From a virus (lineage: Duplodnaviria > Heunggongvirae > Uroviricota > Caudoviricetes), in the IMG/VR virus record IMGVR_UViG_2713896798_000008: a stretch of DNA of 64,000 nt; one strand, written 5' to 3'. Every line of letters starts with the position of its first letter. Positions within the stretch are counted from its first letter, which is position 1. The translations under genes were made by a program, and so were the position numbers. The notes under the pieces were generated by a model. It searched no databases. It had not been told where the DNA came from and was given only the letters and a program-made list of their open reading frames with translations. Positions 1,394 to 58,543 of this stretch are shown piece by piece.

Positions 1394-3945
1394 CGCCTGC
1401 CTCCGGAAAATACGCCGCCATCACGCATCTGCGCCTGAATCTCATCCTGCGCCCCCTTGCGGGCCATGTCATACACCGCTTTCATCAGCTGCGGCCCTGC
1501 CTGCCCCCTGGTACCGTCGTTCTGAATCACCACGTGATTGTTCTGATTAAAATTAATGCCTTCCGTCCGCCGCATCTGCACCGGACTTCCGGCATCGCCG
1601 ACATAACCACCTTCCGCATAGCCCCGCATCAGGCGGTACAGGTTGCCGACACCAATCCGGCTGGTTGCCTCCTTCGTGAAGACAAACTCCCCGCGATGAA
1701 CAATCCCCGCAGGTTCATATTTACCTCCACTCCCGGTAAAACCCCCACCGGCAAATCCCATAGCTCCGGCCACGCTACTGACAACACCCACCATGGCCTG
1801 CTTCAGAAAAATCTCTGTCAGCATGGAGAGCACCGAACGGGTGAAACCTCGCCAGTCCTGCTCACTGCCGGTCAGCATTGCCGCCATATTCTGTGCAATA
1901 CCGTCAAAGGTCTGCGTGGCTGCACTCCTGACCTGCGAAAAACTGTCCGTCGCACTTTCCGCCCACTCGCCCCAGCCGGACTTCAGCCCGGCCATCCAGC
2001 TTCCACGAAGCTGCTCCTCCGCAGACCAGGTGTTCTTCAGTGCAGATGTGGCCTTCGCCAGCGCATCCGGATTATCACCATACACGTCACGAAGACGCTG
2101 CGATTCCGACTCCCGCTGTGCCTGACGGTCCGTCAGCCCCCGGGCTTTTGCGCTGATTGCAGCCTGCTTCGCACTCTGCTGCTGTTCAAACCGCGCAGCC
2201 TGATTTGCCAGCTCATTCAGCCGTTTCTGGTGCTCCACCTTGTCGCCCAGCTCAGCCAGCTGGCGTTTGTACTCAAGCGTCTCTTTCTCATGGGCCAGCA
2301 GGGATTTTTCCTGCTCAGATAACTGGCGTTTCGTGGCGGCCTCTTTCAGGACCGCATACTGATTTTCCGCTTTCCATAAATCACGGCGCTGCTGGCTGAT
2401 TTTCTCATTCGCACCGCTGTGCTTCTCCAGCGTCCTGAGCTCGGTTTCAAGCGCCAGCAGGGCTGCATGTGCCCGGTCTTCCTGGCGCTCACCGGCAGAC
2501 ACCTTCACACCGGACGGCTTTTTCTGCGTCGACTCATAATCCTTTTTTGCCGACGCCATCAGCGTGTTGTAATCCGCCTGCAGGATTTTCCCGTCTTTCA
2601 GGGCCTGATTCAGCTCCTTCTGGCGGGCGGTATATTTATCCAGCGGCGACAGCATCCGTTCATACGCCTTCTGTGCCTCTCCGGTATACTTCAGCTGTGA
2701 CGCGTCACGCTCAGCCTTATCCCTTGCCGCCAGTTCACCGGCTTTTTCCATATCCGACTGCAGCGTTGCCGCTGCCAGACTCAGACGGGCATTTTCACGG
2801 TCATCCCATGCCCCCTGAAGGTTGGCACGGAAAGAGGAGGTCTTTCCCCGGCGCTGGCTCCGGCTCTGGTACCACTGCCATTTTTTATCCGCCTCATCGA
2901 ATGCCTTCTGCGCACTGGCAAGCATATCCGCTGAGGATTCCGGACGACCAATATCCAGAATGGCATCCCACATCGATTTGAACGCCTTCCCTGTTTTATC
3001 CGCCCAGGTTTCCAGCGTCCCCATGTTTTCTTTCAGGCGACGGGTCTGCTCATCAAAGCCTTTCGTGGCGATATCGTTCGCCGCCTGCAATGCCCCGGCT
3101 TCATCTCCGGAACGCTGCAACTGAGCAACATACGCAATCTGCTCCGCCGTCACGTTACGGAACTGGCGTGCCATCGCCATCAGTCCCGACGTCGGGTCTG
3201 TGGTCAGCTTCCCGAAGGCTTCAGCGACCTTGTCCACCTCCACACCGGATGCAGAAGCAAAACGCGCGACACTCTGGTTGATGGCATCAAACTGTTCACC
3301 ACCACGCACACCGGCATTCACCAGGGCGGCCAGTGACTCACTCGCCTGGTTAAACGTCAGCCCTGCAGCCTGTCCGGCTCTGGAGAGCGTCAGCATGCGA
3401 TCGGCAGTCAGTCCGGACTGATTGCCGGAAAGGACCAGCGTTTTATTAAATTCTGAAAGCGTGGCGTCTCCCCGGTACCAGGCATACGCCAGCGCACCTG
3501 TCGCCACCGCCAGCGAGGTGACCCCGAACATCGGCAGGCTGATCGCTCCGGCAAGCCCCCTGAACATGGGGATCATCCCGCCGAAGGAGTCCTTCACCTG
3601 ACCGCCCTGTTGCAGCAGGATCAGCCAGGGATTCTGACCACCGGCAAGCTGCGTGGCCACGTCGGTGAACTGCATGGGTAGCATACGCATGGCCGCTTTA
3701 TACTGCCCGACGGAAATCCCGGCTTTTTGCGCAGCCAGCGCCTGACGGCTCAGGCCCTGTTCAACGGCAGTGGCCTGTTTATTAAAAGACTGGCTGACAC
3801 GCCCGGCCATCAAATCCGCAAGGTCACTGGTTTCCCCCAGTTCTTTCTTTACCCGTGCAGCCTCTTCAGAAAAACGGGTTGAATCCAGTGTAAGAACAGC
3901 TGTCAGATCGGCAAAATTACCCGCCATAGCGTACACCTCCTGCAA
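1390..3945 (-). CDS. H: Tail tape measure protein H
   Basis: 851-aa ORF, Ala/Gln-rich coiled-coil centre, lambda gpH-like length and position. Confidence 0.9.
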   Translation of the reverse strand: MQEVYAMAGNFADLTAVLTLDSTRFSEEAARVKKELGETSDLADLMAGRVSQSFNKQATAVEQGLSRQALAAQKAGISVGQYKAAMRMLPMQFTDVATQLAGGQNPWLILLQQGGQVKDSFGGMIPMFRGLAGAISLPMFGVTSLAVATGALAYAWYRGDATLSEFNKTLVLSGNQSGLTADRMLTLSRAGQAAGLTFNQASESLAALVNAGVRGGEQFDAINQSVARFASASGVEVDKVAEAFGKLTTDPTSGLMAMARQFRNVTAEQIAYVAQLQRSGDEAGALQAANDIATKGFDEQTRRLKENMGTLETWADKTGKAFKSMWDAILDIGRPESSADMLASAQKAFDEADKKWQWYQSRSQRRGKTSSFRANLQGAWDDRENARLSLAAATLQSDMEKAGELAARDKAERDASQLKYTGEAQKAYERMLSPLDKYTARQKELNQALKDGKILQADYNTLMASAKKDYESTQKKPSGVKVSAGERQEDRAHAALLALETELRTLEKHSGANEKISQQRRDLWKAENQYAVLKEAATKRQLSEQEKSLLAHEKETLEYKRQLAELGDKVEHQKRLNELANQAARFEQQQSAKQAAISAKARGLTDRQAQRESESQRLRDVYGDNPDALAKATSALKNTWSAEEQLRGSWMAGLKSGWGEWAESATDSFSQVRSAATQTFDGIAQNMAAMLTGSEQDWRGFTRSVLSMLTEIFLKQAMVGVVSSVAGAMGFAGGGFTGSGGKYEPAGIVHRGEFVFTKEATSRIGVGNLYRLMRGYAEGGYVGDAGSPVQMRRTEGINFNQNNHVVIQNDGTRGQAGPQLMKAVYDMARKGAQDEIQAQMRDGGVFSGGRR

Positions 3946-4321
3946 TTCCCTCAGACACCATCATCAGCATGGCTTCATCCTCTGTACTGATCCGCATGTC
4001 ATCACTGACCGTAACGATTTCCTTCCCGTCAGCCCCAAAGCGGACACCACCAGAAAGACCTGCCGCTTTCCGCATCAGCATATCGTCCTCATCCGGCATC
4101 TCCGTCTGCTCATCATCACGTCGTGGTGCAAGCAGACTGAAGTCCGAGGGATGCATATCCGGATCGCAAAAAAACAGGCTGAGTACGGCGTACGTCAGCC
4201 CGGAAAAATGCATATCCAGTTGGGTATCGTGAAAATAATGCGTGCGGTAAAAATGTCGCCAGTCGGCATATTCGGTGGATGTCATCCCGGCAAGCATGGC
4301 GCGCCAGTCAGGCCTCCCCAT
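3917..4321 (-). CDS. T: Tail assembly protein T (C-terminal part of G-T frameshift fusion)
   Basis: ORF in -1 frame relative to G, directly downstream of the slippery heptamer; lambda G-T arrangement. Confidence 0.7.
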   Translation of the reverse strand: MGRPDWRAMLAGMTSTEYADWRHFYRTHYFHDTQLDMHFSGLTYAVLSLFFCDPDMHPSDFSLLAPRRDDEQTEMPDEDDMLMRKAAGLSGGVRFGADGKEIVTVSDDMRISTEDEAMLMMVSEGIAGGVRYGG

Positions 4322-4347
4322 CTCACGCGCCAGTCTGAGGGCAAAAT

Positions 4348-4779
4348 TCAGCTCGCCGTCGAAGGCTTTCCCGCAGAAAAATCATCATCAGTCAGCGCGT
4401 TATTTTTCTCCACTTCGGTGATATCCGTATCCACATAAACAGGCCCGCTCATCCCGGACAGACGCAACACCACGTCTTCCGCCCGGGCAATGGCATCAGC
4501 AGGCCAGGTGGTCAGGACTTCCTGCTCAATCTGCATCACGGCCTCATTCATTGACGGTGACTGCGTTTTCTGTGGATGGTTATGCCACAGGGACATCGCC
4601 ACCAGAAACGCGCCGGTTCTGACGAGATCTTCCACGCTTACCTGCAGGTTGCCGCTGGATTCTGCCTGTTCTGCCCGCCGTTTCAGGAGGGCAAGATGCT
4701 CAATACGCTGCAGCGCGGACAGCTCAGAAAGCGTGACGGACACACCGTTATATTCAAATTGTTCTGTTTTCAGAAACAT
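4348..4779 (-). CDS. G: Tail assembly chaperone G
   Basis: 143-aa ORF MFLKTEQFEYNGVSVTLSELSALQRIEHLALLKR..., lambda gpG-like. Confidence 0.85.
   Translation of the reverse strand: MFLKTEQFEYNGVSVTLSELSALQRIEHLALLKRRAEQAESSGNLQVSVEDLVRTGAFLVAMSLWHNHPQKTQSPSMNEAVMQIEQEVLTTWPADAIARAEDVVLRLSGMSGPVYVDTDITEVEKNNALTDDDFSAGKPSTAS
4366..4372 (-). promoter_or_regulatory. Programmed -1 ribosomal frameshift slippery site (GGGAAAG) for G-T fusion
   Basis: Plus strand reads CTTTCCC, i.e. GGGAAAG on the coding strand, a few codons before the G stop, same as lambda. Confidence 0.7.
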
Positions 4780-4798
4780 GCTTTATCATTCCCTCAGC

Positions 4799-5548
4799 TT
4801 AACCCGCTGCACCATCCGTGACGTTAATTTCCGCCACTGCCGCAAACTGACCATTTCCGGTCACCACAGGGATCTGCGCTTTACCGGCCGCAACACCTTT
4901 CACCGTGATCGTATTCCCCTTCACGGTAATGGTCGCAAAATTCTGATTCGCCGACGTGGCGCGGAAGGTTTTATCTGTCGCCCCTTCCGGCTGAACAGCC
5001 ACGGTCAGGGTGATATTCTGACCTTTTGCCACATTGCCCGTTGGTGGCGTAACGGTAATACCGGTAACCGGTGTGATATCCCCCTGATCTTCCGCCAGCG
5101 ACGGACGGCCGATATTGGTGATCTTCACGGTACGGGTGATCACCTCTCTGGCGGTCACCGCTTTACCAATGGCACTCACCCAGCCACGGAACACATCCAC
5201 CGTGCCGTTCGGGAAACGGATTTTGTAGGCCCGGGTCTCACTGCTGTCAAACCAGGCGATCAAATCACGCTGTCCTTGCTCACCCGGTTTCCAGGCCAGC
5301 GTAAAACTGGTGTCACCGGCAGATTTCTGCCCCTGCCCGGTGGATACCCAGTCAGCATCCTCATCATCCAGATAGTTATCATCGTAGGATTCTGCCGTCA
5401 TCTCGCCAGGGGTCAGATCTTTTATCTTTGCCAGGCGCGTCCACTCATCGTCTGACAACGGGTTTGCATAAGCATCACCAGTGCCGGTGTACACCCATAG
5501 TGTGGTGCCGGAACCTTTCACCGGCTCAAGAGGATTTGGTATTGCCAT
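4799..5548 (-). CDS. V: Major tail protein V with C-terminal Ig-like domain
   Basis: 249-aa ORF, lambda gpV-like N-terminal domain, C-terminal repeat [16 protein letters not shown] typical of Big_2-like extension. Confidence 0.9.
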
Positions 5549-5555
5549 ATCGTCC

Positions 5556-5954
5556 TCACATCTCGTAGGTAATTTTCCACAGGAGATCTGCCGATCCCCA
5601 CATCATAAACTCATCATCCCGGCGGTAGTCATACCCCTGAAGATTCATCTTCAGCAGTAACACACTGAGGCCGGGAACCGCTTCCAGCGCAGGAAGAATT
5701 TTCTCTTCCATCCACATATCCAGTGCCGAGTCCGGTTCTTTTGCCCTGAGAAAAACTTCAATATGTAGTGTCGCCTCCCAGGTCCCCTCATCAACGAACT
5801 CGTCAGCCGCAGACGCATCTGTCAGGTAAACAGCAACAGCAGGCAGTTCCTGTTCATCAATAAAAACCGGGCGGCCGTCAAACCAGTTCACCCGCTCAGA
5901 AATATTTGCTTTCAGGGCTGACAGAACTGCCGCCCGTATTTCACGGTGTTTCAT
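5556..5954 (-). CDS. U: Tail terminator protein U
   Basis: 132-aa [14 protein letters not shown]...GYDYRRDD...ITYEM, lambda gpU-like. Confidence 0.85.
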
Positions 5955-5966
5955 ACACCCTCCCTG

Positions 5967-6590
5967 TCATTTTCTTTTCAGCACCAGGCGTAACTGATGC
6001 GTCATGGCTTTCATCATCTGCTCCGGTAATTTTTCCCGGTACATCCTGTCACGCTCACGCTCAAAGGTTTCTGCCAGCGGTTTTGCCGTCGCTATTTTCA
6101 CCACTTCAATTGGCAGGCGGTGACGTTTTGGCCTCCCTTTGCTGTCAATACCGGTAGACAATGAAGCCTGTGGCATACGCTGCATCACATGCCACCGGCC
6201 ATTTGCCAGTCGGGTGATAAACGCATCAGGGATGCGCCGTTTACCCACAATCAGCACACTGCCACCGCCTTTCAGAAATGCGCGCTCACCTTTCTTTCTC
6301 CGCTTGCTTCGGGAAAGCCGCACGCGGGCCTCCCCGAGTTTTATTGCAGGCAGATTACCGGTATTGATGTAAACCTTTGCGTTGACCTTGTCAGCCCGTG
6401 CCCGACTTAAACGGATACGGGCACGGATGAGACGGCGTGGAACCGCCAGTTCACGGGCAACAGAAGAAGCCGTTTTCGCGATGATGGACTCCGCCACACG
6501 GTTAAGCGTGGTGGCTGCCGCACGGGGAACGGCACGGCGATCCAGCGCATCAAGATTTCGCATAGCCTGAGCCATTCCCTTTATCGCCAT
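5967..6590 (-). CDS. Z: Tail completion protein Z family
   Basis: 207-aa basic protein with RRKKG...KGGGSV...GRWHVMQR motifs, position between head-tail connector and U. Confidence 0.75.
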   Translation of the reverse strand: MAIKGMAQAMRNLDALDRRAVPRAAATTLNRVAESIIAKTASSVARELAVPRRLIRARIRLSRARADKVNAKVYINTGNLPAIKLGEARVRLSRSKRRKKGERAFLKGGGSVLIVGKRRIPDAFITRLANGRWHVMQRMPQASLSTGIDSKGRPKRHRLPIEVVKIATAKPLAETFERERDRMYREKLPEQMMKAMTHQLRLVLKRK

Positions 6591-6592
6591 AC

Positions 6593-6874
6593 TTACTCCT
6601 GCTCGAGAAAAATTCTGGTTTTGCCGTTATGAGTGTCATAACGGGTCACCACCAGTAAGCGACCGTCAAACACAACTTCATCATGGCGTGCCGGAACGTA
6701 CTGCTGTGAAAAAACAACCAGAGATAGCAGGCTGCCGGAAAGCGCCCCCATATCGGCAGGCGCTTCATCCGGTATCACGTCATACTTGATCCCGTTAATT
6801 TCCGCCTGTTTGCCCATCACGTGAACAGTCACAGAATCCATCCGACGGCACATACGGCCAAACAGATCAGACAT
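6593..6874 (-). CDS. Head-tail connector protein (FII-like)
   Basis: 93-aa ORF between head and tail modules; family call from position and size only. Confidence 0.5.
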   Translation of the reverse strand: MSDLFGRMCRRMDSVTVHVMGKQAEINGIKYDVIPDEAPADMGALSGSLLSLVVFSQQYVPARHDEVVFDGRLLVVTRYDTHNGKTRIFLEQE

Positions 6875-50154: not shown

Positions 50155-50181
50155 TAAAGATTTTTTTGTGCATGCCGATAG
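50155..50181 (+). promoter_or_regulatory. Sigma28 (FliA)-type promoter TAAAGATT-N11-GCCGATAG upstream of flxA
   Basis: Matches consensus TAAAGTTT-N11-GCCGATAA with correct spacing, 25 bp upstream of ATG at 50207. Confidence 0.6.
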
Positions 50182-50206
50182 TGCTTTTTTAAAAGGAGAA
50201 ATCTAT

Positions 50207-50248
50207 GTCTGTCACAATTCAGGGAAATACCTCAACCGTTATTTCAAA
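50207..50248 (+). pseudogene. flxA: flxA-like gene 5' fragment, truncated by IS66 insertion
   Basis: ATG with GGAG SD encodes MSVTIQGNTSTVIS then runs into IS terminal repeat GTAAGCG. Confidence 0.5.
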
Positions 50249-50285
50249 GTAAGCGTGCAGCAAGAACCGTATTGACGGGGATGTG

Positions 50286-51824
50286 TTATTCAGTCGGCAG
50301 TGCTACGCGCCAGGGGAGCAGTTCGCCGACCCGGTTTATCGGCCAGTCGGCTATGACGTCAAGGACATAGCGGAGGTAGCTTTCTGGCTCCACTCCGTTC
50401 AGTTTGCACGTCCCGATCAGGCTGTACAGCAGCGCTCCCCGCTCTCCTCCATGATCCGAACCGAAGAACAGGTAGTTTTTGCGGCCCAGACTGACCATCC
50501 GCAACGCATTTTCAGCGATGTTATTGTCCGCCTCAGCCCAGCCATCATCTGCATAGTACGTCAGCGCCGGCCACTGGTTCAGGGCGTATGCGAACGCTTT
50601 CGCCAGTTCTGAGTGTCGCGACAGGGTTTTCATCTTTTCACGCAGCCAGCTTTCCAGGGATTTCAGCAGCGGTTTCGTTTTCAACTGACGTTCGGCAAGG
50701 CGCTGCTCCGCCGTCATTCCCCTTATCTCTGCCTCGATGGCGTACAGTTCGCCGATCCGTTTCAGCGCTTCCTCCGTCAGGGCTGACGGGGTGCGAACGT
50801 GCACATCGTGGATTTTACGGCGGGCGTGAGCCCAACAGGCGGCTTCCGTTATCCGGCCATCCCGGTACAGCTCGTTGAACCCGGCGTATGCATCCGCCTG
50901 CAGTACACCACTGAACCCCGCAAGATGGGTCTGCGGATGGATGCCTTTTCTGTCCGGGCTGTAAGCGAACCACACCGCCGGCGCCAGCGTTGACCCGGCG
51001 TTACGGTCGTCACGAACGTAGGTCCATAACCGCCCGGTCTTCGTTTTCTTATTGCCTGGCAACAGCACCGGGACAGGCGTGTCATCAGCATGGAGCTTAC
51101 CGTCAGTCAGCACATAGTCCTGAAGCGCTTCTTCCAGCGGTGACAGTAGCCGGCAGCATGCATCCACCCAGCCCGACAGCAGTGAACGACTCAGCTCCAC
51201 GCCCTGGCGGCCGTACATTTCAGACTGGCGGTACAGCGGGGTGTGCTCTGCATACTTTGAGATCAGCACGCGGGCCAGCAGCCCCGGTCCTGCGATACCC
51301 CGCTCGATGGGCCGTGAAGGCGCGGGGGCCTGCACGATGGCATCGCACTGAGTACAGGCATGCTTTTCACGTACAGTCCGGATAACCCGGAAGACGCTGC
51401 GCATCAACTCCAGCTGTTCGGCGGCATCCTCACCCAGATAGCTCAGTGAGCCTCCACATTCCGGGCAGCATGACGCTGCCGGCAGCAGCCGTTTTTCATC
51501 GCGGGGGAGTGATTCGGGGAACGGTTTGCGGGTGCGGGTTTGACGCAGCGGGCGCTGCACGGCCGGGTCGTCAACCCGACCGGTAAGGGTATCACTTTCT
51601 TTCTGAAGTGCCTTCAGGTCAGCTTCCATCTGTGCGATACGACGGGAGACTTTTTCGGAGCGGCTGCCGAAGTTCATCCGGCGCAGCTTATCCAGCTGTG
51701 CCTGCAGATGGTCTATTTCGCGTTCACGCTCGTTCAGCTTTTCCAGCAGGGCACGGTTCAGCGCCTCCTGTTCGGCAAGGAGACGTTTCAGTGCATTGAT
51801 ATCGTCAGGAAGTGAGCTGCTCAT
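50286..51824 (-). CDS. IS66-family transposase (TnpC)
   Basis: 512-aa ORF with IS66 transposase features. Confidence 0.85.
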
Positions 51825-51872
51825 ACCGGGTATATTACCAGGCTCATTCAGCGTCGACCAGGATAAAGAGGC

Positions 51873-52220
51873 TTACAACATAGTCAGGGACGTAAGCAGT
51901 CTTTTAGGCTGCCGCCAGTCGATACCTTCAAGGAGCATCGCCAGCTGTGCCGGTGTGAGGAACACTTTGCCATCCCGGGCTGACGGCCAGGCGAAGCGGC
52001 CGCGCTCCAGCCGTTTGGTCAGCAGACACAGTCCATCGCCGGTAGACCAGAGGAGCTTTACCTGACTGCCATTACGCCCACGGAAGATAAAAACGTGACC
52101 TGACATCGGATCGTCTTTCAGCGTCGTCTGCACCTTTGCCGCCAGGCCGTTGAAGCCATTTCTCATATCGGTGATACCGGCAACCAGCCAAATTTTTGTC
52201 CCGGAAGGTAACGGGATCAT
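51873..52220 (-). CDS. IS66 TnpB accessory protein
   Basis: 115-aa ORF MIPLPSGTKIWLVAGITDMRNGFNGLA, IS66 orf2 signature. Confidence 0.85.
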   Translation of the reverse strand: MIPLPSGTKIWLVAGITDMRNGFNGLAAKVQTTLKDDPMSGHVFIFRGRNGSQVKLLWSTGDGLCLLTKRLERGRFAWPSARDGKVFLTPAQLAMLLEGIDWRQPKRLLTSLTML

Positions 52221-52618
52221 CGCTTCAGTTCCTGTATCAGCAGAGTCAGGAGCTTTTCGCTGACATTGCCATTGAAGCGGAGCGTCCCGTGCCGGAACGT
52301 TACCTCACAGCTGATACTGAGGGTTTTCGGGTCCTCTGCGAGCGATTCTGGCTGTTCGGCAGCTGCATCGAGAGTCACAGGAAGTAGCTGGGGGCTCTCT
52401 GAAGAAGGTAATAGCAGCTTTCCCTCGCGCCATTGTTGTCGCCATTTGAACAACAGATTGGCGTTAATGCCATTTTCAAGAGCAAGTTTTGAGATGGATA
52501 TCCCGGGTTCACAGGAGGCAGCAACGAGCTGCTGTTTAAATTCGGGAGGATAATTAGGGCTGCCTTTTCGCCTGCCGGGAGTCACATTTTTCTGCATATC
52601 TGACACTTTGGTTCCCAC
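52217..52618 (-). CDS. IS66 OrfA (HTH accessory protein)
   Basis: 133-aa ORF, overlaps tnpB start. Confidence 0.8.
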   Translation of the reverse strand: MGTKVSDMQKNVTPGRRKGSPNYPPEFKQQLVAASCEPGISISKLALENGINANLLFKWRQQWREGKLLLPSSESPQLLPVTLDAAAEQPESLAEDPKTLSISCEVTFRHGTLRFNGNVSEKLLTLLIQELKR

Positions 52619-52685
52619 TACTTATTTGGTGGACACCACTTTGTCTAATTCGTCAGATTCTGACCAGACGGTTCAGGCTGTACGC

Positions 52686-54248
52686 TTACAGATCAACTTT
52701 CCAGGGCAACAGATCGCGTACCCGGTTTGCCGGCCAGTCCTGGATATGTTCAATGACGTAACGCAGCCACTTTTCTGGCTCCACATTGTTCAGACGGCAT
52801 GTGCCGATCAGCGAGTACAACACCGCCGCATGTTCACCACCGCTGTCGGAACCCGCGAACATCCAGTTTTTCCGGCCTACGGCCACTCCCCGTAAGGCGT
52901 TCTCTGCGATGTTGTTGTCGATTTCCACCCAGCCATTACTGCAGTACACGTTCAGTGCATCCCACTGTTTCAGCAGGTATGCGAACGCTTTTGCCGTATC
53001 TGAGTGACGCGACAGTGTTTTCATCTGTTGCTGTATCCAGTCATACAGTGACTGCATCAGTGGCGCGGCTCTGGCTTTTCTTGCCGCCAGACGCTGTTCT
53101 GCTGAACAGCCCCGGACCTCTGCCTCGATGGCATACAGTTCACCGATACGCTGCAGGGCTTCCGTGGTGATGTAGGTGGGCGCTCTTGCATGCACATCGT
53201 GGATTTTTCTCCGGGCATGAGCCATACACGCGGCTTCCGTTATTCTGCCGGATTCGTATAACGCCCGGTAACCACCGTAAGCATCGGCCTGAAGCACACC
53301 GCTGTAACCGGCCAGGTGATTTTGTGGATGGATACCTTTCCGGTCCGGACTGTACGCGAACCAGACCGCCGGGGGCATCTGTGAACCGGCGTTACGGTCA
53401 TCACGGACGTAGACCCACAGCCGGGCTGTCCGGGTTTTACCGCTGCCCGGCTCCTGGACCGGGACGGGGATATCATCAGCATGGACTTTACCGGGCATCA
53501 GCACATACTGGCGCAGGACGTCATACAGCGGCTCCAGCAGTTCAGCAACAGCACCTGTCCAGCGCCCCAGTGTGGCACGGCTCAGCTCCACTCCCTGACG
53601 ACGGTATATTTCTGACTGGCGGTATAACGGCAGATGGTCTGCATATTTCCCGGTGACAACATGGGCCAGAAGCCCCGCTCCGGCATAACTGCGTGCAATG
53701 GGTTTTGAAGGTACTGGTGCCTGCACGATATGGTCGCACCGGCAACAGGCCTGTTTCGGACGTTGTGTTTCGATAACCTTAAAGGCGCTGCTGATAAGCT
53801 CCAGTTGCTCTGACACATCACATCCCAGAGAACTGAGTTCACCACCACAGGCAGGACAGCATTCCTCTTCCGGCCGGATAACCCGGGTTTCACGGGGAAG
53901 TGAGGCCGGTAACGGTTTACGGGCTGAAGACTGGCGCAGGGCGGATGGCAGTACCGGGTCATATTGCTCACCCAGCGTTTCCGCCATTTCTTCCTGAAGT
54001 GCGCTGATTCGCTCCTGTGCTTCCTGTATCTGCCGTTCGGTTTTTGCACGAAGTTTTTCTGAGCTTTTACCGAACTGCATACGTTGCAGTTTCGCAACCA
54101 GCGCCTTCAGCCGGTTGATTTCGGAAGCATAAGCCGCCACCCGCTGTGAGAGCAGGCGGTTGTATTCAGCCATCTGGCGGATGGTGTCCTGTTGCGTCTG
54201 CAACAGTGCCCGCAGGCGGGCGTTCTCATGAGCAAGTGAGGTGTCCAT
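52686..54248 (-). CDS. IS66-family transposase (TnpC), second element
   Basis: 520-aa ORF, roughly 60 percent identical to copy 1; C-terminus a few residues shorter. Confidence 0.8.
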
Positions 54249-54267
54249 ATCCTCACTTTACAACGGG

Positions 54268-54615
54268 TTATATGCGGATTCCAGCGCGTTCCGTTCGTTT
54301 CGGGTGCTTCCAGTTGATACCTTCAAGAAGCATGGATAACTGAGCCGGAGTAAGGTGCACCTTGCCGTCACGGGTGACTGGCCAGACGAAGCGGCCCCGC
54401 TCCAGGCGTTTGGTGAAGAGGCACAGTCCGTCACTGTCAGCCCACAACACTTTTATCTGGTCACCCCGGCGTCCGCGGAAGATGAACAGGTGTCCGGAGA
54501 ACGGGTCATCCTTCAGGACGTTCTGAACTTTTGATGCCAGGCCGTTAAAGCCATTTCGCATATCGGTGATACCTGCAACCAGCCAGATACGCGAACCTGC
54601 AGGGAGAGATATCAT
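54268..54615 (-). CDS. IS66 TnpB accessory protein, second element
   Basis: 115-aa ORF MISLPAGSRIWLVAGITDMRNGFNGLA. Confidence 0.85.
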   Translation of the reverse strand: MISLPAGSRIWLVAGITDMRNGFNGLASKVQNVLKDDPFSGHLFIFRGRRGDQIKVLWADSDGLCLFTKRLERGRFVWPVTRDGKVHLTPAQLSMLLEGINWKHPKRTERAGIRI

Positions 54616-55292
54616 CAGTGGCTGCTCCCTTTTATTTCGCGGATAAGTGTCTGTAATAACGCCGGCGTCAGTTTACCTTTAAGCCTGAGAGTTCCGGCCG
54701 GCAGAACCAGCTCACAACACAGACTGTCGGACGGTGTATTTATCTGCTCTGGTTCCTGTGCGGGGGCCGGGATTTTATTATCCGGCTCCGGCGTTAACGT
54801 CACGGGAAGCAGTGCCGGCATATTTTTTCCGGAAGGCAGCAGGCCACCTTTCCGGTATTGATGGCGCCAGTTGAAGAGCAGGTTATCGTTGATTCCGTTT
54901 TCCCGGGCGATCTGCGCCACACAGGCTCCGGGCTGTAGTGACTGCTCCACTAAGGCGATTTTAAACTCATAAGGGAAGTTGGGCCGCCGGGGACGTTTTT
55001 TTACCACGGGGGCTTCGGATATAACGGTGCTTTCAGGACGTACGACTGGTACCGTGGAAAATTGTCCGTAAAGGCAGGCATCAAGTTCCTGCTCCGACAT
55101 GCCTGCGGGCAAAGGCCACGAAAGGCCAGCTCTCCGAAAGCGCACGAACATACTACAAACTGTTGATTTTGGTACACTCAGGCGACGCCCGGCCACAACC
55201 CGGGGTAAATGTTCTTCAAAGTGAAGACGTAAAGCTTCAGTGATCCAGGTCCGGTGTTTCATACGATAGTGTCCATTAAAAATGATGGACAT
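54615..55292 (-). CDS. IS66 OrfA-like protein with N-terminal extension (start uncertain)
   Basis: 225-aa track ORF; conserved OrfA core begins near KKRPRRPNFPYEFK. Confidence 0.6.
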   Translation of the reverse strand: MSIIFNGHYRMKHRTWITEALRLHFEEHLPRVVAGRRLSVPKSTVCSMFVRFRRAGLSWPLPAGMSEQELDACLYGQFSTVPVVRPESTVISEAPVVKKRPRRPNFPYEFKIALVEQSLQPGACVAQIARENGINDNLLFNWRHQYRKGGLLPSGKNMPALLPVTLTPEPDNKIPAPAQEPEQINTPSDSLCCELVLPAGTLRLKGKLTPALLQTLIREIKGSSH

Positions 55293-55345
55293 TATTTTTG
55301 TAGAGCCGGAGGAAACAGACCAGACGGTTTAAATGAGCCGGTTAC

Positions 55346-55591
55346 AGACAAATTCAGGTGCTGACTGAAAAGCTTGGGAAAATCTCATCGGAAGAGGGGA
55401 TGACGACACAGCAGAAAAAAGAAATGGCTGCATTGGTACAGAAGCAAATTGAAAGCCTCTGGGCTCAACTGGAGCAGTTGTTAAGGCAGCAGGCAGAGAA
55501 AAAGAATGAAGACGCGACAGTTCAGCCTGATAAAAAAGAAGAGAAAAAAGACGATACAAATACCGCTGGCACCATTGATATTTACGTCTAA
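55346..55591 (+). pseudogene. flxA: flxA-like gene 3' fragment
   Basis: In-frame continuation ...RQIQVLTEKLGKISSEEGMTTQQKKEMAAL... immediately after IS terminus; terminator follows. Confidence 0.5.
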
Positions 55592-56027: not shown

Positions 56028-57341
56028 TCAATCTTTTTTATCGGGATCAGGCTTCTTTTTAGGTAACTTCGGGGGCTTAACTTGCTGATGACTTTGCGTT
56101 CGGCGCGTAAGCCAGGGATGGTCAGCTTTAGGTTTAACATAGTATTTTGAGCGTAAATCAATACGGGCATTATCCACTCGTTCATGGACACTCTTTTCAT
56201 CATCCAGTGGTATAGGCTCCGGGCCATCAACATACTTTTCCCAGCCCAGCGCTTTCCCGTCATACAGAACGTTAATTTCACCGTCAAAGTTCTCGCATAC
56301 AGTAACAACCGAATGCCTAAGTCGATATCCCCGGCCCTCACTGCGTACCTGAAACGCACTGCTTTTGTACTGGAAAGTGAGATTTTTAGACAGAACGCGC
56401 TTCGCCTGTAGGCTGAAGATATAACCCAGTTCCTCTTCAGAATGGTGCACATCAAGATGAGCATTATCAGTAGTACGAGGCGACGTAGCGAACCGGTTGT
56501 TATAGGCTTCAATAAAGGTCGGCAACCATGCATTTGCTGTTTCAATATCACTGATATTCTGAAGCCGCATTTCTTTGACCAGCCTGTCCTGTAGTGTCTG
56601 ATTGGCGCGCTCTACCCGCCCTTTTGCCTGCGGGCTGTTGGCATGGATTGGCTCGATGCCCAGTGTCTTTATCGCACGAGTGAACTGGGTCAGCTCACCT
56701 TCCCGCTCTGGGTTATTTACCCTGAATATACTGTGTCTATCAGAGTAGAGAGCGAGCGGTACGCCATGATCATTAAGGTAACCCCGGAGGGTTTCCATGT
56801 AAGCCCGGGTTGTTTCAGCAGGCACAAAACGCAACGCCATCAACGCACTGGTGGCATCATCAATGAAAACGATCAGTGTACATCTGGGGCCTCGATTTTC
56901 AAACCAGTCATGAGGTGAGCCATCAATCTGGATCAGTTCACCGTAAGATGGTCGTCGCATGCGGCGTTGATATATACGGGCAATTTTACGACGGCGTTCA
57001 CGCCATAACCCCTCTTCTATCATCCACTTTCTGAGAGTTTCAACGGATAAAGATAAACCGTGTATCTCGCGCAATTTTTCGCACGCAAACGTAGGTCCAA
57101 AATCAGCGTAACGGCCTTTGAGGAGTGAAATTACTGTTGCTCTGAATTCAGTAGAAAAGGAATTATTAGGACGCTTTCCACGTCGGTGGGAAACCAGACC
57201 AGAAGGCCCTTCATTTCTATACCGTTGCACCAGACGTTTAACCTGCCGAATAGAAATGCCAATGCGTGCCGCAGCTTGTTCCTGAATAATCTGAAGTCGG
57301 TGGAGTTCCTTATGACTCATCGTAACAGTCTCTTTGATCAT
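56028..57341 (-). CDS. DDE transposase with integrase-core domain (IS481-like family, single ORF)
   Basis: 437-aa ORF: N-terminal HTH, DDE triad context (IQIDGS, LYSDRHS, SPQAKGRVERAN). Confidence 0.6.
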   Translation of the reverse strand: MIKETVTMSHKELHRLQIIQEQAAARIGISIRQVKRLVQRYRNEGPSGLVSHRRGKRPNNSFSTEFRATVISLLKGRYADFGPTFACEKLREIHGLSLSVETLRKWMIEEGLWRERRRKIARIYQRRMRRPSYGELIQIDGSPHDWFENRGPRCTLIVFIDDATSALMALRFVPAETTRAYMETLRGYLNDHGVPLALYSDRHSIFRVNNPEREGELTQFTRAIKTLGIEPIHANSPQAKGRVERANQTLQDRLVKEMRLQNISDIETANAWLPTFIEAYNNRFATSPRTTDNAHLDVHHSEEELGYIFSLQAKRVLSKNLTFQYKSSAFQVRSEGRGYRLRHSVVTVCENFDGEINVLYDGKALGWEKYVDGPEPIPLDDEKSVHERVDNARIDLRSKYYVKPKADHPWLTRRTQSHQQVKPPKLPKKKPDPDKKD

Positions 57342-57781
57342 GAAAAATCCCCCAGAGAATTGTCTGGGGACATTTTAGAATGGTTCAAAGGGGACATTAC
57401 AGCTTGGTGTTAACAATAGCCTGCTTCTCCGTGCCTTTCGGCACGTAAGAGGCTAACCTACATGTGTCTAGCATGAAATTGGCCTCAGATTAATGTTAAG
57501 CGTCTTGCAGGACGCGTAATGTTAACTGGGGCTTTTCTCTATCTGCCGTTGGTGTCCATGCCCGAGGCAGATAGCCTCAAGCACCCGCAGTCATTCTACT
57601 TAACTAAGATTTCCCCGCAAACCGTTTTTGTCCAGCACAGTAAATATCCAACTAAACCAATGGAGTTCGCTGTATTTACCGCCAGTATTCAATGCACATG
57701 ACCGCCATGAACACCCCTAAAAAAAGGGCATTTATATATCCAAATATTAATATCAAAACATCAACTTTTTCCATATACCTT

Positions 57782-57790
57782 GCTGTGAAG
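57782..57790. repeat. IS1 target-site duplication GCTGTGAAG (left copy)
   Basis: Identical 9-mer at 58559-58567 directly flanking the other IS1 end. Confidence 0.85.
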
Positions 57791-57845
57791 GGTGATGCTG
57801 CCAACTTACTGATTTAGTGTATGATGGTGTTTTTGAGGTGCTCCA

Positions 57846-58121
57846 GTGGCTTCTGTTTCTATCAGCTGTCCCTCCTGTTCAGCTACTGACGGGGTGGTGC
57901 GTAACGGCAAAAGCATCGCCGGACATCAGCGCTATCTCTGCTCTCACTGCCGTAAAACATGGCAACTGCAGTTCACTTACACCGCTTCTCAACCCGGTAC
58001 GCACCAGAAAATCATTGATATGGCCATGAATGGCGTTGGATGCCGGGCAACTGCCCGCATTATGGGCGTTGGCCTCAACACGATTTTACGTCACTTAAAA
58101 AACTCAGGCCGCAGTCGGTAA
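57846..58121 (+). CDS. insA: IS1 InsA
   Basis: 91-aa [26 protein letters not shown]. Confidence 0.9.
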
Positions 58122-58543
58122 CCTCGCGCATACAGCCGGGCAGTGACGTCATCGTCTGCGCGGAAATGGACGAACAGTGGGGCTATGTCGGGGCTAAATC
58201 GCGCCAGCGCTGGCTGTTTTACGCGTATGACAGGCTCCGGAAGACGGTTGTTGCGCACGTATTCGGTGAACGCACTATGGCGACGCTGGGGCGTCTTATG
58301 AGCCTGCTGTCACCCTTTGACGTGGTGATATGGATGACGGATGGCTGGCCGCTGTATGAATCCCGCCTGAAGGGAAAGCTGCACGTAATCAGCAAGCGAT
58401 ATACGCAGCGAATTGAGCGGCATAACCTGAATCTGAGGCAGCACCTGGCACGGCTGGGACGGAAGTCGCTGTCGTTCTCAAAATCGGTGGAGCTGCATGA
58501 CAAAGTCATCGGGCATTATCTGAACATAAAACACTATCAATAA
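58040..58543 (+). CDS. insB: IS1 InsB (expressed as InsAB' by frameshift)
   Basis: 167-aa ORF in -1 frame overlapping insA. Confidence 0.85.

Follow-up and report, generated by a model that had tools for sequence, protein, structure and literature searches.

The closest described relatives of the two elements considered here are IS66, IS679, ISEc8, ISEc22 and ISCro1, insertion sequences (ISs) of the IS66 family. Both elements share with them the tnpA-tnpB-tnpC layout, a length of 2.4-2.7 kb, a DDE transposase with zinc-finger and leucine-zipper regions, and terminal repeats that start with GTAAGCG or GTAACCG. The two elements lie one behind the other within the gene flxA, in a 64,000-nucleotide (nt) stretch of DNA (IMG/VR virus record IMGVR_UViG_2713896798_000008), which is referred to below as the window. 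The same elements, when found elsewhere, carry 8-bp target duplications, whereas the copies in the window have none, and the second of them, of ISCro1 type, is also without one terminal repeat.

The gene in question corresponds to flxA of Escherichia coli K-12 (b1566), a FliA-dependent gene of the Qin prophage whose function is unknown. In K-12, its expression was 280 in the wild type and 2 in a fliA deletion strain (PMC4183435; FliA dependence is also treated in PMC1935009), and the gene is described as playing no evident part in flagellar synthesis or motility (PMC4183435).

Two further groups of described systems are relevant to the locus. The adjacent deletions of IS1, IS903, IS26 and IS30, and those of Tn3-type intramolecular transposition, start exactly at the terminal nucleotide of an intact IS, leave the IS itself untouched and remove the target duplication, and in these respects they resemble what is seen in the window. 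Unlike the classical examples, the deletion in the window is very short (approximately 100 bp) and ends within the terminal repeat of an IS of the same family. We know of no experimental demonstration of an adjacent deletion for IS66 elements, nor of a circular or dimer intermediate. The second group comprises IS30 (PMC9333248) and IS21, which target terminal repeats and form head-to-tail arrays, a behavior similar to the occurrence of ISCro1 1-38 bp from the tips of ISEc8- and ISEc22-type elements (the ISEc8/22 group). Unlike the dimers of IS30 and IS21, with their 2-3 bp repeat-repeat junctions, the IS66 partners differ in species and have ordinary 8-bp duplications.

It is apparent from comparison with K-12 that flxA is interrupted in the window by 5,097 bp (3 x 1,699), and that nt 45-87 of the gene (43 bp) are missing. 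The history most compatible with the data, to which we assign a probability of roughly 0.8, is that two IS66-family elements inserted independently, about 50 bp apart, and that a deletion of about 100 bp, anchored exactly at an ISEc22 tip, followed; every step of this history is inferred. A preliminary description, prepared from the DNA letters and their open reading frames (ORFs), had likewise proposed insertion followed by an IS-mediated adjacent deletion, and this is still the most economical reading, given an endpoint at an ISEc22 tip, the lost duplications and a junction that was found nowhere else. The main features of the locus are as follows.

50155..50182, + strand: FliA (sigma-28) promoter of flxA, TAAAGATT-N11-GCCGATAG, intact
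50193..50198, + strand: ribosome-binding site of flxA, AAGGAG, read from the sequence and the same in K-12
50205..50248, + strand: flxA 5' fragment, nt 1-44, exact match to K-12 flxA
50249..52689, - strand: complete ISEc22-type IS66-family element, 2,441 bp, antisense to flxA
52690..55345, - strand: ISCro1-type IS66-family element, 2,656 of the 2,699 bp of the intact copy in enterotoxigenic E. coli (ETEC) H10407
55346..55591, + strand: flxA 3' fragment, nt 88-333 (codons 30-110 and the stop codon), exact match to K-12 flxA

The comparison with K-12 bears out the suggestion that a single flxA-like gene had been split: neither the promoter, the ribosome-binding site nor the two coding fragments differ from those of K-12 (100% identity over nt 1-44 and 88-333), and the 3' fragment matches the Pfam family FlxA (PF14282, 2.7e-9) and is labelled by RefSeq as 'FlxA-like family protein, incomplete, missing N-terminus'. 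Over 549 nt of the left flank there is no difference from K-12, and over 650 nt of the right flank there is a single mismatch; the neighboring genes also correspond, with relBE-hokD-ydfV lying upstream and ydfW lying downstream. The segment at 50-56 kb is the relBE-hokD-ydfV-flxA-ydfW portion of a Qin-type cryptic prophage, and its sequence occurs uninterrupted, with 100% identity, in the genome of E. coli SCPM-O-B-9504 (NZ_CP144930.1).

The interval of about 5.1 kb given in the preliminary description agrees with the 5,097 bp measured here, but two of its details require correction. The start codon of flxA is the ATG at 50205, not at 50207, and the gene does not resume in frame. Its upstream part ends at position 2 of codon 15 and its downstream part begins at position 1 of codon 30; although the insert is a multiple of three, the loss of 43 nt places the fragments out of frame, and their direct join of 290 nt is frameshifted and runs into stop codons. 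From its own start the gene now reads MSVTIQGNTSTVISK, ending at a TAA (50250-52) within the IS terminal repeat. flxA is therefore a null allele here, and its own start yields just a 15-residue peptide.

The promoter was said to be intact, and it is. The sequence TAAAGATTTTTTTGTGCATGCCGATA (50155-50180) is the sole match in the window to TAAAG-N14-GCCGATA, with approximately 0.2 matches expected at one mismatch or fewer, and it does not differ from the experimentally mapped FliA site of K-12 flxA, TAAAGATTTTTTTGTGCATGCCGATAGT (PMC4183435). By motif identity it is a FliA class 3 promoter, since the TAAAGTTT-N11-GCCGATAA-like motif is that of the K-12 flxA site found by chromatin immunoprecipitation and sequencing. 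RefSeq annotates an 84-amino-acid (aa) 'hypothetical protein' (WP_024196036.1; 50021-50275, + strand) in another frame through the flxA promoter and 5' end, with its stop within the ISEc22 repeat; this is almost certainly an annotation artefact made by the IS insertion.

The element nearer the promoter, of ISEc22 type, contains three genes.

50286..51824, - strand: tnpC, 512-aa DDE transposase (Pfam DDE_Tnp_IS66, 1e-106)
51873..52220, - strand: tnpB, 115 aa (Pfam TnpB_IS66, 1.6e-38; NCBIfam IS66_TnpB)
52217..52597, - strand: tnpA (Pfam HTH_Tnp_1; NCBIfam IS66 TnpA), given from the RefSeq start, with a possible extension of the ORF to a GTG at 52618

This gene content places the element in the IS66 family, with all NCBIfam scores above their cut-offs; TnpC also contains the zf-IS66, LZ_Tnp_IS66 and IS66_C domains and matches NCBIfam transpos_IS66. 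The element runs from its tnpC-side repeat, at 50249, to the end of its tnpA-side repeat, at 52689. The two ends, GTAAGCGTGCAGC... and ...GCTGTACGCTTAC, are complementary at 23 of 30 positions, and both tips read GTAAGCG, so that the first copy has both of its terminal repeats, as had been described. All 2,441 positions are identical to the ISEc22 of strain 2017.06.04CC. The names ISEc22 and ISCro1 as used here rest on RefSeq/PGAP annotation, which assigns this element to the 'ISEc22 family'; it is 88.5% identical to a copy annotated as ISEc8 and 100% identical to another annotated as ISEc22. The ISEc22 copy is intact in structure and potentially mobile.

The second element, named 'ISCro1 family' by RefSeq, likewise has the three genes of an IS66 member, including an IS66-type DDE transposase (Pfam, NCBIfam).

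52686..54248, - strand: tnpC, 520 aa (523 when intact), from the ORF list, with all four Pfam IS66 domains complete
54268..54615, - strand: tnpB, 115 aa (Pfam TnpB_IS66, 4.7e-40)
54615..55292, - strand: tnpA, 225 aa, long form (NCBIfam IS66_access_TnpA, 4e-88)

Only its tnpA-side repeat is kept (...GAGCCGGTTAC, ending at 55345), so that it is a truncated IS66 member. In comparison with the H10407 copy (L004 in our numbering of fetched records, 4062-6760), 43 bp at the tnpC-side end, the terminal repeat included, are gone (GTAAGCGACTCG...GAGAGCTC). The TnpC protein ends ...WKVDL* in place of ...WKVDLSSQ*, its last three codons having been lost, and the final base of its last codon and its stop codon are supplied by the ISEc22 repeat; 517 of 521 positions, the stop included, are identical to the H10407 protein. 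The preliminary description had noted both the missing lower terminus and the missing transposase codons of this copy. Having just one end, it would be unable to move by itself, despite its near-complete proteins.

The two elements were described as tandem and non-identical, and the comparison supports this, with 69-76% identity across conserved parts only. On the evidence of their sequences, ISEc22 and ISCro1 are different IS species and not two copies of one. Because two IS species are involved, at least two insertions and one deletion of approximately 94-102 bp are required to account for the locus.

The positions of the breaks were defined by calibrating the true ends of each IS on copies elsewhere that are flanked by clean 8-bp duplications: for ISEc8/22, those in TW14425 (GTGGAAAA), O17_K12a (GAAGGAAC) and 2017.06.04CC (GAAAAGCT), and for ISCro1, those in TW14425 (TGATAATC), pTW10590 (AAAAGAAC) and p99_0288 (GAACGGGC). 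At the left junction, flxA nt 44 is followed directly by the G of GTAAGCG. At the junction between the two elements, ...GCTTAC is followed by nt 44 of ISCro1, with an ambiguity of 1 nt arising from a shared C. The pair is bordered by ATTTCAAA and AGACAAAT, which do not duplicate each other, and the borders of the ISEc22 element by itself, ATTTCAAA and AGATCAAC, also differ; as had been described, no 8-bp duplication is present. An endpoint at the terminal nucleotide of an intact IS and the absence of the target duplication, both of them seen here, are the marks of an adjacent deletion. Since the same element has 8-bp duplications in O17_K12a and 2017.06.04CC, the missing duplication in the window would be a secondary condition.

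Of the 5,426 complete genomes of E. coli that were searched, only those of strains SCPM-O-B-9504 and SCPM-O-B-7615 were found to have the three junctions, each in one piece. The fused junction between the elements had no match in 72,556 plasmids of PLSDB, and no exact-pattern match to the flxA-IS junctions was found in metagenome contigs or in contigs of GTDB genomes. With the junctions found only in the two SCPM strains, the structure is real and lineage-specific, and it was most likely formed in place. In the sister strain, SCPM-O-B-7615, an additional IS66-family element, ISEc23, lies in the opposite orientation within tnpA of the same ISEc22 (L006, approximately 3303-5850). The locus is thus an IS66 nest that is still gathering elements, and the additional ISEc23 indicates that the two assemblies are independent. 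It is therefore scarcely credible that the structure is an artefact of assembly, produced by the collapse or mis-joining of IS copies. IS66 elements are indeed present in multiple copies in this genome (about three ISEc22 ends and about ten other ISCro1 ends), but the three junctions are common to two separately assembled complete genomes, one of them with the extra element.

The loss of a target duplication is not unusual in the ISEc8/22 group: of the 29 fetched records in which an ISEc8/22-type copy is complete, 16 had 8-bp flanks that do not match (the records come mainly from IMG/VR prophage contigs with the ISEc8/22 tnpA-side repeat, L013-L071, with two E. coli genome loci, L001 and L004, one of these being the window locus). 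In one IMG/VR contig (L060), the flanks are those of two other insertion sites, whose duplications are cgaaaaac and gacatcag, from which it follows that recombination between ISEc8/22 copies has happened. That the duplications in the window were likewise removed by homologous recombination, involving IS copies located at different sites and no activity of the transposase, is nevertheless highly improbable. Both flanks there are flxA, in the same orientation and 43 bp apart, so that two ISEc22 copies within approximately 100 bp would be needed, and the present elements, 69-76% identical, are joined at the tip of a repeat, outside homologous sequence.

The favored history, two independent insertions and an end-anchored deletion, can be formulated in two orders that give the same product. 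Two different IS66-family elements would have inserted independently into the 5' third of flxA, in the same orientation and with approximately 50 bp between them. In the first order, ISEc22 presumably duplicated flxA nt 37-44, and ISCro1 presumably duplicated nt 88-95, with its tnpC-side end towards the tnpA-side end of ISEc22. A deletion from the exact tnpA-side tip of ISEc22 would then have removed 102 bp, 59 of them from flxA and 43 from ISCro1, that is, the DNA between the elements, both internal copies of the duplications and the first 43 bp of ISCro1. In the second order, the mirror image, ISCro1 would have come first and ISEc22 would have inserted into ISCro1 nt 44-51, after which 51 + 51 bp would have been lost, leftwards from the exact tnpC-side tip of ISEc22 into flxA. 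In either order the deletion has an endpoint at the terminal base of ISEc22, at an end that is intact, and for this reason we infer a transposase-made adjacent deletion, in which the IS end would attack a nearby site on the same molecule. If ISEc22 had been present alone, with a duplication of flxA nt 37-44, the join GTACGCTTAC+ATTTCAAACAACTCC would be expected; for ISCro1 alone, with a duplication of nt 88-95, it would be CACAAGACAAAT+GTAAGCGACTCG.

Several observations favor this history. Both of the expected 8-bp duplications are gone, and the fused junction was found in no other place searched. ISEc22 or ISEc8 occurs alone in flxA of other strains, twice at nt 58-65 and once at nt 109-116. 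Lastly, ISCro1 lies near the tnpA-side tip of an ISEc8/22 element at five unrelated loci, so that an independent insertion of each of the two partners is plausible.

Other points weigh on the opposite side. In the genomes, plasmids and contigs searched, no strain was found with just one of the two insertions at these positions. To our knowledge, the chemistry of IS66 transposition has not been established; we assume, from the behavior of IS1, IS26, IS903 and IS30, that ISEc22 can produce adjacent deletions, and the literature searched yielded no IS66-specific report of a deletion of this kind made by the transposase. The presumed original spacing of the elements, 59 bp, exceeds the 1-38 bp observed at the other paired loci. 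In addition, if ISCro1 duplicated nt 88-95, the DNA lost is symmetrical, comprising 43 bp of flxA, one 8-bp copy of the duplication and 43 bp of ISCro1 (94 bp). A simple adjacent deletion does not predict this symmetry, which may be a hint of a one-step event or may be due to chance.

Such an event would require ISCro1 to have been in flxA already, and the two ends of the incoming ISEc22 to have joined targets 94 bp apart, instead of 8 bp, on either side of the ISCro1 end, the DNA between the two target positions being deleted during the insertion itself. Two events would then suffice, the 43 + 8 + 43 bp lost would be centered on the presumed ISCro1 duplication copy, and the 94 bp, about nine helical turns, could reflect a target in the form of a protein-bound or looped terminal repeat; as is described below, IS66 elements also appear to be drawn to each other's ends. 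We consider this unlikely. No precedent for such an insertion was found in the IS66 family, nor a second example in any collection searched, and the symmetry depends on the assumed position of the duplication and may have arisen by chance, with odds of about 1 in 50-100.

The placement of IS66 elements at each other's ends is apparent from the five unrelated loci just mentioned, in each of which an ISEc8/22 element has ISCro1 beside its tnpA-side tip, head-to-tail and similarly oriented, with spacers of 1, 9, 9, 29 and 38 bp.

H10407, L004 4047-4105: spacer of 1 bp
TW14425, L005 4040-4110: spacer of 38 bp
L007 3550-3580: spacer of 9 bp
L008 3550-3600: spacer of 29 bp
L009 3550-3580: spacer of 9 bp

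In H10407, the ISCro1 duplication, CGCTTACC, holds the last 7 bp of the partner's repeat, and ISCro1 must therefore have arrived second. Against these five cases at 38 bp or less, in a control for the opposite orientation at that ISEc end the two-piece cases came no nearer than approximately 83 bp (two weaker one-piece matches, H229 and H230, were left out), and in two controls at the other ISEc end the nearest spacers were 26 bp and 56 bp. The comparison is an informal one, as the genomes share phylogenetic history and IS elements tend to gather in islands. These results suggest end-directed insertion among IS66 elements.

Two observations on such pairs may be added. In H229 (a plasmid of strain MS 85-1) and H230 (strain 21310), 109-113 bp matched, in one piece, an artificial sequence in which the tnpA-side ends of ISEc22 and ISCro1 had been joined tail-to-tail, which suggests that IS66 elements there abut or overlap tip-to-tip in opposite orientation. 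In p99_0288-1 (L009 1-2700), an ISCro1 lies within tnpC of an ISEc8-type element, and another ISCro1-type element is located 9 bp from the other end of that element, so that here, too, IS66 elements are nested.

The paired loci also bear on whether the 5.1-kb pair was formed elsewhere and moved into flxA as a unit, by means of the tnpA-side end of ISCro1 and the tnpC-side end of ISEc22. The same two IS types do occur together, in the same order, in approximately 75 genomes, and the tnpC-side repeat of ISEc22 agrees with the lost tnpC-side repeat of ISCro1 at 21 of 30 positions, while ISCro1's own ends match at only 18 of 30. The five paired loci, however, have 1-38 bp spacers and, wherever flanks could be paired, a duplication of each element's own, and they therefore reflect elements that inserted separately rather than a unit that moves. 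This locus is the only one at which the fused internal junction was found; moreover, the pair has no 8-bp duplication, and 43 bp of the target are gone. Transposition of the pair as a unit is accordingly a very improbable origin, though marginally less so than homologous recombination.

Insertions of IS66-family elements in flxA have occurred repeatedly. Strain O17_K12a (L010) has the same Qin variant with a single ISEc22, differing at 3 nt from that of the window, in sense orientation and with the duplication GAAGGAAC (flxA nt 58-65). GPEC1446 (L012) has an ISEc8 at the identical site, with the same orientation and duplication; because this ISEc8 is only 88.5% identical to ISEc22, its insertion was an independent event. 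In 2017.06.04CC (L011), an ISEc22 identical to the window copy is located at flxA nt 109-116 (GAAAAGCT). Within approximately 75 bp, flxA nt 44-116 (equivalent to 50248-50320 of the window), there have thus been at least four independent ISEc8/22 insertions and one of ISCro1, and the 5' third of flxA is a possible hot spot for IS66 insertion. Among 13 clean ISEc8/22 duplications, G is the first base in eight and the sequences are A-rich overall, a weak bias, and one that is too weak to explain the re-use of an identical site.

Two further proposals were considered and rejected. Derivation of the window structure from an insertion of the O17_K12a type (ISEc22 at nt 58-65, in the opposite orientation) would need an in-place flip and two deletions. 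The sequence AACCGT at flxA nt 31-36, which is like a conserved block of the terminal repeats, was considered as a cause of the hot spot, but it is a 6-mer only and points in the wrong direction relative to the sites.

The re-use of flxA and the clustering of elements at each other's ends suggest target preferences for which no description was found. It is conceivable, if doubtful, that IS66 elements of the ISEc8, ISEc22 and ISCro1 types have a two-faced target preference, for the first 120 bp or so of flxA and for the terminal repeats of other IS66 elements (giving head-to-tail arrays), in which case the 43 + 8 + 43 bp loss in the window would be the scar of insertion into a transposase-bound repeat and not of a later deletion.

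Homology to the K-12 Qin prophage ends at window position 56212, the start of K-12 ydfX. Beyond it are a truncated transposase gene of the ISNCY family (approximately 56298-57320, - strand) and then IS1A (approximately 57846-58543), the dicC-dicA side of Qin having been replaced in the window strain (56213-58543). The ISNCY remnant is also present in O17_K12a, where IS1A is absent.

In its broad outline, the locus shows the ordinary decay, through IS activity, of a gene in a cryptic prophage, and the interrupted gene and the two IS66 elements are already annotated in RefSeq; only the recurrent insertions in flxA and the clustering of IS66 ends may be of interest to specialists in transposons. 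The locus does document a short, end-anchored deletion beside a member of the IS66 family, whose transposition chemistry is poorly known, and a copy of ISCro1 that has been left immobilized yet protein-coding. The intact FliA promoter, which had been described as now reading into the IS, lies 67 bp upstream of it, and the flxA start codon is 44 nt from it. A scan for terminators from the promoter to the interior of the IS gave nothing above the shuffled expectation. With the IS so near and no terminator-like signal between, the FliA promoter should drive antisense transcription across the tnpC gene of ISEc22. A strong and well-characterized FliA promoter antisense to an IS66 transposase gene could tie the activity of the IS to the motility regulon.

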